64,000 bases of DNA, taken from Scenedesmus sp. PABB004. Lineage: Eukaryota. Positions 1 through 55,858 of this stretch are shown here, in pieces. The position numbers and the translations under genes were made by a program. The notes below the pieces were generated by a model. It worked only from the letters and a program-made list of their open reading frames with translations. It had not been told where the DNA came from and searched no databases. The DNA lies in NCBI GenBank assembly GCA_014905635.1, contig CM026548.1:434001-498000 (forward strand), written 5' to 3'. Every line of letters starts with the position of its first letter. Position 1 is the stretch's first letter.

Positions 1-3000
1 GCAGCTCTGGGCGCTGGTCCAGGAGGTGGCGCCGGGCGCGGAGCTCGACCCGGCCGCGCTGCAGGTCGAGCTCGAGGCGTACCGGCCCAAGCTGCTCGCG
101 CTCTTTCGCAACAAGGTGCGCCCCGGCGGCGCGCAGCAGCGGGAGGCGGCGCAGCGCCCGGCGGCGCGCACGGCGGCCGCGCGCGCGCGCGCCGGCGGCC
201 GCTGCTGCCGCGCGGCAACCGCCGCAGCCGCCGCGCGCGCCGGGCGCCGCGCCGCGCGCCCCACCGCCGCGCGCTCCGCCGCCGCCGTCCCGGCGCAGGG
301 CCCGGATGCGGGCCTGCGGGCGCAGGTGCAGCGCGGGCGCGTGGCGACGCCGTCGTTCGGGGAGGTGCCGCTCGATCGCGACCCTGATCAGCACTGGGTG
401 CGCGCGCGCGCGGCGGCGCCGCGGGGGGCAGCTGCGCGCGGGGGCCGCTGCCGCAGGCCGGCGCCGGCTTCGCGAGCGCGAGCCCACGGCGCCGCCGGCT
501 CGCACCCCCGCCGCCGCAGGTGGTGGAGCTGTCGGACAAGCTCCGCCTGGATGAGGTGACGTGCGTGGAGCTGCTGGCGTACGCGCAAGAGATGGTGCGG
601 CGGCGGCGGCCGCCGCCGCCGCGGGCCGCGCCCGCCGGCGCGCGCTCGCGGCCCGCGCGCCGACCGCGCCGCGCACCCCCGCCGCGCAGTGGGGCCTGGG
701 CGGGCTGGAGGCGGCGTTTGGGACGTACCTGCTGGAGCGTCTTGACGCCGCGCGCGCGCTCAGCCGGCTGCTGGCGCTGCAGCTCTTCCACCAGCTGGAG
801 GTGGGGCAGGCGGGCGAGGCCGAAGGTGCGCCGGCGCCGTGCGCGCGGGCGGACGGCGCGGCGCTGCATGCGGGCGGCCGCCCCAACCGCGCCGGCGCGC
901 GCCCCGGCGGCGCCGCAGGCGACGTGTCGGGCGGCGCCGGCGGCGGCGCGTCGGGCGACGGCATCAGCGGCAGCCTCGCGGCGTTGATGGAGTCGCAGCC
1001 GCTGCTGGCCGTGGTGTCGCGCTTCAACGAGGGCCTGCTGCGCGCCGAGGAGGGCGGCAAGAACACGCTGGTCGCCCGGCTCATTGAGGCCGTCCGGGTG
1101 CGGCGCCGGCGGCGGCGGCAGGCGTCACCGCGGCGGCAGCTGCGGCAGCGGCATCACCACCACCAGCGCCAGCAGCGGTGGCGGTGGCGGCCCACCACTC
1201 CGCCCGCCCGCCCGCCTGCCCTGCTGCTTGCAGGACCACACGCTCGACAGCCTGGGCCCCTCCTTTGCCGTCGCGCTGGACCAGTACGGCTGCCAGGCCA
1301 GCCGCACCTGGTACATCCAGCAGGCGCGTGCGGCGGGGGCCGCCGCGTGCGCCCTGCGGCCGGGCCGCTGCGGCGCCGCCCTGGGCCCCCTCCGGGCGCA
1401 GCACCTGCCCCGTCCCGCGCGCCGCCCACGCGCCGCGCCCGCGCGCCGCCGCTGCGGGGCTCGCAGGAGCGCGGCGAGCTGTGCCGCGCGCTGCTGTACG
1501 CTGTCGTGCTGAGCCCCACGCCGCTCACGCCGGCCACGCTGGCGGAGCTGCTGCAGCTGCTGGAGGCGCTGGCGGGCAAGGTCAAGGCGGCAGGTGCGCC
1601 GCCGGGCGCCGCACCTGCGCGCAGGGCGGGGCGGGGCGGGTCTTGCCGCCGCGCGCGGCCGATCACGAGCGGCGCCGCGGCGCTTCGCCCGTGCCGACTG
1701 CCTCGCGCCGCCCGCCGCGCGCAGGCGCGTCTGCGCCGCACGCGCTGCTGCAGCAGGCCACGTCGTGCCTTTTCGCGGTCATCACCGCCGTGAGCCTCGG
1801 CAACGCGGCGGGCGGCGCGCCGCGCGCGCCCGCCACGCTCGCGCAGCTGCTGCGCTCGCCGGACCTCGCGCCCCACCTCCAGCGCGGTGAGCTCGGGCGG
1901 CCGCGCCCGCGTGGCGGCCGCCGCCGCCGCCGCAGCTGCCGTGCCCGCCCGCCCGCCCGCGCTGCTCAGCGCGCCCGCCGCGCCCCGGCGCGCCCCGGCA
2001 GTGTCCAAGCCGGAGGACGGCTTTGCCGCGCTGGTCGCGCTCGCAGTCGGCCTGACGCGCGACGCGCTCGCGACCGCGCGCGCCGGCGGCCCGCTCGCCG
2101 GCGGCGTCGGCGCCGCGCCGCCCGGCCCGCTCGACGCGTCCGGCGGCGGCGCCGCGGCGCCGGCCGCGCTGCTCGAGGCCGCGGGCCGCGCGCGCGCGCT
2201 CGGCATGCTGTCGTGGCTGCTGAGCAGCACGGCGTTTGCGCTCGAGCCCGAGGCGGGGCACAAGGCGCTCGCCGCGCGCATGGCGTACCGCCTGATCACC
2301 GAGATGCTGGAGTTTGATGTCGCCAGCAGGCGGTACGCACGGGGCGCGGGGCTCAGCCCAGGGCCCACGCCTGCTTATGCCCGCGCGCCGCGCAGCGCCG
2401 CGCCGTGCCGAGCGCGGCCCTCCGCGCCCGCGCCCGCCGCCGCGTGCGCCGCGCAGGGAGCTGACGGAGAGCCTCATCCGCGAGAGCCGGCAGCACCAGG
2501 ACCGCGGCGTGAGCAGCAGCCGCGGCGGCGCGTTCCTGCCGCTCGGCGGCGCCGGCGGCGCCGCCGCGCCCGGCGCGTCGCCCGGCCCCGGCACGCCCAC
2601 CGGCGCGCAGGGCGGCCTCGGCCTGCTGCCGGCGCCGGGCGCGGCGGCGGGTGGTGCCGCCGCCGCCGCACCGGGCGGCGGCGGCCTGGCGCCGCAGGAC
2701 GACCTCTCGAGCCTGCTCGAGGCGCTCGCGGTGGTGTTCGGCGTGCGCCCGGGGCTGTGGTTTGACGGCGAGGCGCCGGAGAGCTACCCGCACGTTTCGA
2801 GCTTTATGAGCTATGTGAGCCGCCGCCGCCGCCGCCGCCGCCGCCGCCGCCTCTGCCGCCGCCTCTGCCGCCGCCGCCGCCGCCGCCGCCGCCGCCGCTG
2901 CCGCTGCAGCTGCCGCGCCTGCCCGGCCGGCCGCGGCGCGCCGCGCCGCCACGCCCGTGCGCCCGCGCGCCGCCACGCCCGCGGCGCCGCAGGTCGCGGT

Positions 3001-53967: not shown

Positions 53968-55858
53968 ATGGCCGACGCCATCGACCTCACGCTGACGGAC
54001 AGCGAGGCGGAGCCCAGCCCCGCACTGCCGCGGCAGCCCGCCGCCGCGGCGGCCACGCCGCCGACCGCCGAGCGGGCGCGGCCAGCGGAGCCCGCCGGCG
54101 GCGGCGGCGGCGACGACGCCGAGGCGGCGGCGCGCAAGCGCATCATGGCCTTTGCGTGCGGCGTGGCGGCGCCGGGCAAGCGCGCGCGCACGGCCGGCGA
54201 CGACGACGGCCCGCTGCCGGCCGCGCCGGGCGGCGACGAGGGCGAGGGCGGGGCGACGCCGGCGGCCGAGCCGGCAGCAGCCCCGGCGGCCCCGCGGGGC
54301 TTTGGCAACGCCGACCTGCGCGCACTGCACGAGGCGCGCATGGCGCGGCAGCGGCCGGAGCAGCCGCCGGCCGACGCAGCGGGCGGCGGCGGCGAGCGGC
54401 GCCGCGGGCGCAGCGCCAGCCCGCCCGGCGGCGGCGGCGGCGCCGCCAGCCCCGGCGCGGCGCGCCGCCGCTCCCCGTCGCCGCGCGCGGCTGACGCCGG
54501 GCCGCCGGCGAGCGGCGCGGCGCGCGCCGTCAGCCTGCTCACCTTCAACGTCTGGTGCGCCGCCCGCCCTCCCCGCGCGCCGCCCCCACCCCCCACCCCC
54601 CTGCCCCCCTTTTGCGTGCGGCCGGCCTGCAATTCGCCGCTGCCAGTGCCGCCGCGCCGCGCGGGCCCGCGCCCCAGCGCTGCTCCCCGCCCCGCCCGCC
54701 GCTGGTTTGCAGGTTCAGGGAGGACGTGGCGCTGCTCGAGCGCATGCTCGGCATCGGTGACGTCATAACGTCTGCTGGGCTGCCCACCTTCATCTGCCTC
54801 CAGGCGGGTTCCGCGTCAGGGTTGAGCGTTCGGGTTCAGCGTAGGGGTGCTGCCACCGCCGCGCCGCCGCTCCGCCGCGCCGCCCGCCGCCGCCGACGCG
54901 CGGTCGCGCGCCTCACGTGCGCCTCGCGCCCCCGGCAGGAGGTGACGCCGCTGATTCACGAGCTCCTGTCGAACATGGCGTGGTGGAGCAGCTACGTCTC
55001 GTCGCCGGCGCCACGCGACGCGCCGTACTTCACGCTTCTGCTCGCGAAGCGCGGCGACGCGGCGTCGGCGGCGCCCGGCGGCGGCGCGCTGGCGGCGCGC
55101 GCGTTCCAGGAGCTGCCCTTCGGCAATAGCTGCATGGGTGGGCGCGCCGGGGGGGCGCCGCCGCCCGCGGCGGCCGCAGCGCGCCCGCGTCCGCGCGGCG
55201 CCCACCGCCGCCTGCCCCCGCGCGCGCAGGGCGCAGCCTGCGCACGGTGCCGGCGTCGGTGGGCGGCGCGCGGCTGCTCGTCGCGACGAGCCACCTAGAG
55301 TCTCCGATGCCGCCCGCCCAGATGTTCAGCGAGCAGCGCGTCGCACAGCTTCGCGAGTCGGCGCGGCAGCTCGACGCCACCGGCGCGGCCAACATCATAT
55401 TTGCGGGTGCGCGGCGGACGGGCGCGCGCGGACGCACACGCCGCTGGGGACGGGCGCGCGCTCGACGGGCCGCGTCCGCCGCCGGCGCCCGGCCGCGTCT
55501 GCGGCGACGGTGCCGCCGCGCCGCAGGCGACTGCAACTGGACCGACGCACGCGACGGCGCGCCGCCGCTGCCGCCTGGCTGGTCGGACGCGTGGACCGCG
55601 GTCAACCCGGGCGACCCGGGGTTCACGTATGATGGCAAGGCCAACCCCATGCTGCCGTCCAAGGGCCTCTCGCTGCGGCTGGACCGCGTGTTTGTCAAGC
55701 TCCGCGACTGGCGCGTCGCGAGCGTGGAGCGCGTGGGCACCGAGCCGCTGCCGGGCGTGACGTACACGCACACCTTTCGCGGCGGCCGCACCGCCGAGCT
55801 GCCGGTGCTGTGCTCGGACCACTTCGGCCTGCTGCTGCGCCTGGAGCCCGCGACGTGA
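53968..55858 (+). CDS. TDP2: Tyrosyl-DNA phosphodiesterase 2-like EEP-family nuclease
   Basis: LLTFNVWFREDV..LERM, ICLQEVT, NSCMGRSL, ATSHLES, IFAGDCN, DAW...PGFTYD...N.ML, RLDRVF and SDHFGL. Confidence 0.9.

Follow-up and report, generated by a model that had tools for sequence, protein, structure and literature searches.

Does an alga whose genome is extremely rich in G+C splice a large share of its introns at GC instead of GT donors? The question is raised by a stretch of 64,000 nucleotides from the green alga Scenedesmus sp. PABB004 (contig CM026548.1, positions 434,001 to 498,000; hereafter the window), for which a first-pass annotation made from the letters alone had listed 24 introns with a GC donor and an AG acceptor (GC-AG introns), roughly one in six by its own count. 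Judged by protein conservation, the GC donors are real wherever they could be tested, and the observation as a whole is partly confirmed. We put a probability of about 0.8 on the explanation that these are ordinary U2-type introns in which C has taken the place of T at intron position +2, driven by G+C pressure and tolerated in a strong context for U1.

Composition of the window and the listed donors

The G+C content is 75–81% in each 4-kb block of the window. Stop codons are so rare that open frames are uninformative: 663 stop-to-stop frames of at least 40 residues, with 120,391 residues in total, occupy all six frames on both strands. A simple filter for richness in Ala, Arg, Gly, and Pro parted coding from junk frames surprisingly well. 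The dinucleotides CG (19%), GG (11%), and CC (11%) together account for about 40% of the window and GT and GC together for 25%, with GC being six times commoner than GT. An intron count from a gene finder was therefore rejected, because the predicted GC share would mostly mirror the chosen prior.

All 24 listed positions read G and C at +1 and +2 on the strand assigned to them. The accompanying remarks, that all but one follow an exonic AG and that most read GCGCG or GCGAG, hold as well. AG precedes 23 of the 24 donors, the sole exception being 50544 (GG), and the intron starts with GCGCG in 18 cases, with GCGAG in 3, and with GCACG or GCGGG in the other 3. Introns of the U12 type, which belong to the minor spliceosome, carry an extended 5′ consensus of the (A/G)TATCC type, and none of the 24 donors shows it. 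On a donor matrix built from the verified introns described below, true GT donors score from −0.5 to 7.9, and 100 GC sites on the two strands of the window reach a score of at least 6. The donor motif alone is therefore weak evidence.

Spliced alignment places 13 GC donors

Related algal proteins were aligned to the window with an enumerator that permitted all 16 dinucleotides as donor. Every donor position between neighboring tblastn segments was combined with every AG acceptor that kept the frame, and the joined peptide was scored against the homologue. Thirteen of the 24 listed GC sites ranked as best donor, four each in the genes for a ClpB-like protein, a starch synthase (SS4), and a TON2-like protein, and one, 4446, in a NUP205 gene (differences are in units of the alignment score).

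36291..36409, + strand: GC-AG intron in phase 2, ClpB-like gene; top with four of five homologues, best GT 22 units lower
36989..37127, + strand: GC-AG intron, ClpB-like gene; top with five of five homologues, best GT 31 units lower
37161..37308, + strand: GC-AG intron, ClpB-like gene; top with five of five homologues, best GT 36 to 41 units lower
37774..37925, + strand: GC-AG intron, ClpB-like gene; top with all four covering homologues, no GT candidate in range
20629..20755, − strand: GC-AG intron, SS4; top with two of two homologues, best GT 53 units lower
20152..20240, − strand: GC-AG intron, SS4; top with four of six homologues, no GT candidate
18702..18833, − strand: GC-AG intron, SS4; top with seven of seven homologues, best GT 13 units lower
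18363..18485, − strand: GC-AG intron, SS4; top with six of seven homologues, best GT 18 units lower
49809..49960, + strand: GC-AG intron, TON2-like gene (EF-hand, PP2A B″-type); top with P0037, best GT 50 units lower
50051..50192, + strand: GC-AG intron, TON2-like gene; top with P0037, no GT candidate
50544..50685, + strand: GC-AG intron, TON2-like gene, donor preceded by GG; top with P0037, no in-frame GT
50728..50844, + strand: GC-AG intron, TON2-like gene; top with P0037, no in-frame GT candidate
4446..4549, + strand: GC-AG intron, NUP205/Nup192-family gene; top with P0083 and P0073

The ClpB-like gene (32.7–38.4 kb) has 19 junctions, of which 15 were resolved, 4 of them with GC; its best homologues come from Tetradesmus, Raphidocelis, and Monoraphidium. 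In SS4, GC accounts for 4 of 14 resolved junctions. At the eight sites of these two genes, GT is never the top donor with any homologue (two to seven homologues per site). Where a homologue misses the listed site, CC, CA, CG, or TG comes out on top instead; the two homologues that do not agree at 20240 select weak CA or CG sites.

The TON2-like sites were aligned with a single homologue, P0037 (619 residues), which is probably the transcript of a relative because its 619 residues lie on a contig of 2,414 bases. Four of the six resolved junctions in the conserved half of this gene are GC. A 42-nucleotide (nt) exon (50686–50727, + strand) with a GC-AG intron on either side had been overlooked by tblastn, and the donors 50544 and 50728 were ranked after this exon had been placed. 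Only three GT dinucleotides occur within 50500–50690, around the donor 50544. In the NUP205 gene, the donor 4446 ranks second by 1 unit, behind a CG site, with the homologue P0043, which matches Pfam Nup192, and no GT candidate exists with two of the three homologues. The window's own TON2 and NUP205 frames gave no match in Pfam.

Exact removal of the 13 GC introns restores the conserved reading frame (one to seven homologues each). Were GT used at these sites, 3–41 conserved residues would be deleted or inserted relative to every informative homologue, or there is no GT to be used, which argues against the listed donors being misplaced.

As a control, 56 junction rows from four genes were passed through a filter fixed beforehand, which demanded that each flank span 10 or more columns with an identity of 50% or higher, that the homologue be ungapped, and that the top donor be GT or GC. 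The top donor is GT in 20 and GC in 11 of the 31 rows that passed (one GC row, 35131, is doubtful). Because the filter itself demands GT or GC, it is fairer to say that no other dinucleotide, CG, GG, and CC included, came out on top among the rows that satisfied the conservation criteria. The 25 rows outside the filter, with poor conservation or missed exons, have GT on top in 5, GC in 4, and another dinucleotide in 16, and each of these 16 was excluded by low identity or by a gapped homologue.

The additional GC donor at 35131, in the ClpB-like gene, was top by only 2 units and was dropped, because it does not fit the consensus of the GC donors and is followed, 9 nt downstream, by a good GT donor.

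GC donors have a stricter exon-side consensus

The two donor classes share the intron-side consensus G(T/C)G(C/A)G and are alike from +3 to +6. The 20 GT donors have G at −1 in 18, at +3 in 19, and at +5 in 18 cases, and at +4 they carry C in 12 and A in 4. On the exon side, the 13 GC donors (35131 left out) show C at −3 in 11, A at −2 in 12, and G at −1 in all 13. AG thus precedes 12 of 13 GC donors versus 8 of 20 GT donors (Fisher p = 0.0036), and CAG precedes 10 of 13 versus 3 of 20 (p = 0.0007), in line with the earlier impression that GT donors tolerate varied exon ends and GC donors do not. A mismatch with U1 at +2 is known to be compensated by a stronger consensus elsewhere in the 5′ splice site (PMC3167603). 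Both an assembly error and misplaced sites are disfavored by this difference, because with either of them the GC set would be expected to look like the GT set.

The acceptors of the 33 verified introns read CAG without exception, and the median intron length is 134 nt for GT and 129.5 nt for GC introns (the latter value includes 35131). Intron interiors consist of C (0.47), G (0.39), A (0.07), and T (0.073). A branch motif similar to CTSAY is found in the last 70 nt of only 11 of the 33 verified introns, and 16 of them have the 5-mer CACGC in their tails; the branch signal seems shifted or degenerate.

The deposited SS4 model misplaces GC donors

The SS4 query exon is 100% identical to a deposited NCBI protein, P0006 (named SS4, Scenedesmus sp. 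PABB004), which implies 17 introns, 16 GT-AG and one GC-AG. All four SS4 GC donors are misplaced in this model. It uses GT 20782 in place of 20755 and loses 9 conserved residues, uses GT 20306 in place of 20240 and loses 22 residues, uses GT 18824 in place of 18833 and gains 3 residues, and reads through the intron at 18485, gaining 41 residues. These errors of 3–41 residues bear out the warning that predictors confined to GT would mis-model genes here. The errors of P0006 are not confined to GC donors, because a homologue-supported GT-AG intron (18166–18041, − strand) is read through too. P0006 also fuses SS4 with a neighboring serpin gene by a GT-AG “intron” of 767 nt (20956–21722, − strand), yielding a model of 1,223 residues that spans 16746–23609; the SS4 homologues have 600–820 residues, and the serpin part is absent from them.

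The single GC-AG intron of P0006 lies in the serpin part and is one of the listed sites.

22639..22799, − strand: GC-AG intron, serpin gene; the only pairing with an AG acceptor that reproduces P0006

A frame change is required at this position, and the sole in-frame GT scores −7.9. P0006 maps exactly to the GC at 22799 and the AG at 22639; a GC-AG intron was thus accepted here by the pipeline behind the deposited model.

A (GA)n microsatellite of ∼92 copies (17556–17741) lies inside a 312-nt SS4 intron (17494–17805) and, where frames stay open, is translated into long runs of Ser-Leu. Metagenome loci that matched the SS4 exon (80 kept, at 37–71% identity and for the most part over half its length, on contigs of soil, gut, and comparable metagenomes) were taken as bacterial glycogen synthases without further checks and were not used.

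The donor at 18485 is GT in relatives

Several of the “proteins” available from relatives are gene calls made on pieces of genomic DNA, and their frames extend past the exon into the intron. They thereby report the donor that follows an exon: continuation with Val implies GT, and continuation with Ala implies GC. After the exon that ends at 18486, Val comes next in seven of seven read-through fragments, whereas the window has Ala, so that GT in the relatives corresponds to GC at 18485. At this one site, the comparison speaks for GT-to-GC turnover. In fragments of NUP205, four phase-0 donors were examined, and almost every continuation there starts with Val; at 7955, where the window itself has a GT donor, Val follows in 11 of 12. 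GC donors therefore look rare in the relatives represented by these fragments.

The NUP205 segment 7310–7954 (+ strand) is one unbroken exon in the window, and the relatives' fragments enter Val-initiated read-through at several points within it. This suggests that the relatives have extra introns here or that introns were lost in this compact genome.

Remaining listed sites

A further donor, in an S9 peptidase gene, has other evidence in its favor.

29881..29991, + strand: GC-AG intron, S9 peptidase gene; obligatory intron with a poor GT alternative

This intron is obligatory because it holds an in-frame stop and only a single AG acceptor occurs in the 100 nt that follow. The only nearby in-frame GT (29872) scores −11.4 versus +6.3 for the GC and would drop three residues, and the downstream exon begins at position 20 of Pfam Peptidase_S9.

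For seven sites, the frames and one acceptor each were fixed from coding-like blocks.

31343..31468, − strand: possible GC-AG intron, SAYSvFN-domain gene; matrix 7.9 versus −6.3 for GT
39562..39676, − strand: probable GC-AG intron, WD40 gene first labeled WDR34; matrix 6.3 versus −3.9 for GT
43247..43477, + strand: probable GC-AG intron, WD40 gene first labeled STRAP; matrix 7.5 versus at most −7.6 for GT
45332..45489, + strand: probable GC-AG intron, gene first labeled MINPP1; matrix 8.0 versus −8.2 for GT
46162..46267, + strand: probable GC-AG intron, gene first labeled MINPP1; matrix 5.9 versus −10.5 for the only in-frame GT
51539..51654, − strand: probable GC-AG intron, gene first labeled ATG18; no in-frame GT alternative listed
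54804..54938, + strand: probable GC-AG intron, gene first labeled TDP2; matrix 4.4 versus at most −4.4 for GT

GC donors are plausible at all seven, the GC sites scoring 4.4–8.0 and every in-frame GT alternative below 0.3. At 43247, two coding blocks are parted by a stop. The frame is open throughout at 31468, which makes the intron optional, and the downstream exon matches Pfam SAYSvFN; the frame also stays open at 54804, where an intron is presumed.

The gene labels fared unevenly. Among 18 single-exon pieces searched in Pfam, 5 matched: the downstream S9 and SAYSvFN exons hit their own families, and the other three matches are weak. A search with 13 longer frames confirmed serpin, Peptidase_S9, and WD40. 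WDR34 and STRAP are thus borne out as WD40 genes only, and the frames labeled TDP2, MINPP1, and ATG18 found no match in Pfam. Sequence searches of the PDB with single exons gave a weak match for S9 and a generic WD40 match for “STRAP,” and fixed no junction; the “TDP2” stretch had no match there.

Two donors of the NUP205 gene complete the list.

6125..6255, + strand: ambiguous donor, NUP205 gene; GC 6125 or GT 6113
1324..1466, + strand: candidate GC donor, N-terminal part of NUP205; cag|GCGCG, matrix 7.5, fitting acceptor at 1466

At the first of these, the homologues disagree. P0043 favors GC 6125 (85 versus 76), whereas P0095 favors GT 6113 (71), its best GC candidates scoring at most 64 and lying at other sites; the donor matrix gives +7.9 for GC 6125 versus −5.4 for GT 6113. 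No homologue aligns over 1324. Possible further GC donors were noticed at 5776, 8690, and 9661, in poorly conserved parts of NUP205. Taken together, the first-pass list stands at the 13 sites ranked top in alignment and, on other evidence, at 22799 and 29881, and it is ambiguous at 6125.

Origin of the GC donors

The analysis shows the 13 GC donor positions, their stricter exon-side consensus, the GT found in relatives at one site, and the mis-modeled annotation. From these we infer a cause (composition pressure versus weakened selection), a standard U1 mechanism, and a genome-wide rate. Mutation pressure toward G+C, or biased gene conversion, would keep converting GT donors to GC. The GC form would be tolerated if the other donor positions match U1 well, with an exon ending in CAG and an intron carrying G at both +3 and +5. 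GC donors would then build up to a tenth or more of the introns instead of about 1%.

The composition of intron interiors provides a scale for this process. C outnumbers T there by 6.4:1, so a neutral +2 position would be mostly C, and yet T dominates: the observed C:T odds at +2 come to 0.65 for the verified introns and to 0.21 by the counts of the first-pass annotation. In a simple mutation-selection model, the scaled selection for T at +2 would be about 2.3–3.4, a rough estimate of the preference for T that remains.

Several points weigh against this explanation or limit its reach. Splicing at the GC donors is deduced only from protein conservation, and C at +2 is known only from the assembly. 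Ten of the 24 listed sites lie outside orthologue coverage, and 6125, which was covered, is ambiguous. Another non-GT donor came out on top with two homologues at 20240 and with one each at 36291 and 18485. The evidence for turnover is one site read from gene-caller fragments of relatives whose G+C content is not known. As for the rate, the GC share of 12 of 35 resolved junctions in the ClpB-like, SS4, and TON2-like genes overstates it, because these three genes were picked for their GC sites. “One in six” depends on the earlier hand total of ∼140 introns; with that unverified total, the 13 firm sites amount to 9% and all 24 to 17%.

The alternative that survives best is that the spliceosome itself has changed (in the U1 5′ end, the U6 ACAGAGA box, U1C, or PRP8), so that 5′ splice-site recognition would be re-tuned in this lineage and C at +2 recognized almost as T, being near-neutral in a CAG context. 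The GC share of the resolved junctions is high, as this alternative would have it. C at +4, which does not pair with standard U1, is common in GC donors (10 of 13) as it is in GT donors (12 of 20), and the sparse CTSAY-like motif (11 of 33 introns) would mean that other signals have drifted too. However, the GC donors still require the stricter CAG, as with standard U1 (PMC3167603), and T prevails at +2 against a neutral expectation of mostly C. We therefore regard a changed spliceosome as unlikely, at odds well below one in five. A Rfam scan of the window returned no family at gathering score and so no small nuclear RNA gene within it. If the re-tuning were true, an alga of ∼80% G+C would offer a natural case of co-evolution between spliceosome and genome composition, with turnover from GT to GC in progress. 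The first-pass annotation had joined two interpretations, of which the one on gene predictors is supported by P0006, whereas nothing observed requires the one on adapted U1 or accessory factors; its reading is thus partly supported.

Far less probable is that the listed donors are misplaced and that a nearby GT, or no intron at all, is used, as in the deposited annotation. GC donor-like motifs are common by chance, at the four SS4 sites P0006 either splices at GT or reads through, GT 6113 may be used instead of 6125, and the frames around 31468 and 54804 stay open. Against this stand the conserved residues that GT would cost at the 13 aligned sites. Where no orthologue is available, the in-frame GT alternatives score below 0.3, versus −0.5 to 7.9 for true GT donors, and one GC-AG intron, at 22799, is present in P0006 itself. 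It is hardly credible that T is the true base and that C arose from a systematic error of assembly or polishing: sequence of such extreme G+C is hard to determine, but errors would be expected to strike at random and not to single out donors preceded by CAG, the flanking exons are up to 100% identical to homologues at the protein level with no sign of base errors, and the deposited annotation accepted the GC-AG intron at 22799.

Comparison with known systems

We favor, then, G+C-driven replacement of T by C at +2 in ordinary U2-type introns. Donors with GC make up ∼1% in humans (PMC3167603) and 0.3–2% in plants and animals, as cited in a preprint (10.1101/2024.10.30.620910). Across kingdoms, the G+C content of splice sites correlates with that of the genome (PMC7072748). 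The genome named for P0006 has 39.8 Mb, 78.5% G+C, and 7,092 genes, in an order most of which has about 56–57% G+C (PMC12571836). The words “splice” and “intron” are absent from that report, and the available text of a plant survey (PMC6310983) refers to algae solely as having few minor non-canonical sites. A search that covered the journals in part found no report of a GC-AG excess for green algae, Chlamydomonas, or names beginning with Scenedesm-. The gene number of 7,092 is about half of that of relatives (PMC12571836), and mis-modeling may contribute to it. Gene models would be wrong wherever a predictor insists on GT, in this genome and probably in other extremely GC-rich algae.

A close precedent is the haptophyte Emiliania huxleyi (about 65% G+C), in which 56–60% of donors are GC, including 56% of 241 curated junctions, some of them checked by reverse transcription-PCR (PMC4028052). 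As in the window, the donor is GC, the AG acceptor is unchanged, the share of introns is high, and ab initio models mostly pick GT and are mispredicted. Unlike in E. huxleyi, where GC is the majority and partly verified experimentally, the GC donors here are a minority, read from the genome sequence of a green alga of ∼80% G+C. Among the stramenopiles, the pelagophytes Aureococcus anophagefferens (∼14–17% predicted GC-AG) and Pelagomonas calceolata (∼14%) come near to the share of one in six first counted here, versus 0.32% in Aureoumbra, which has a lower G+C content (preprint 10.1101/2024.10.30.620910). These two species have less than one intron per gene, whereas there are 14–19 per gene here. 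For both groups, the authors ascribe the excess to high G+C (PMC4028052 and preprint 10.1101/2024.10.30.620910), the same cause as we propose. With the ordinary U2-type GC-AG introns of other eukaryotes, the introns of the window share the probable spliceosome class and the compensation by a stronger consensus (PMC3167603); they differ in a frequency that would be roughly 10-fold or more higher. The phenomenon is thus already known in kind, and what is new is the lineage and the extreme G+C content: a case from the green-plant lineage, with many introns per gene, joins the haptophyte and pelagophyte examples.

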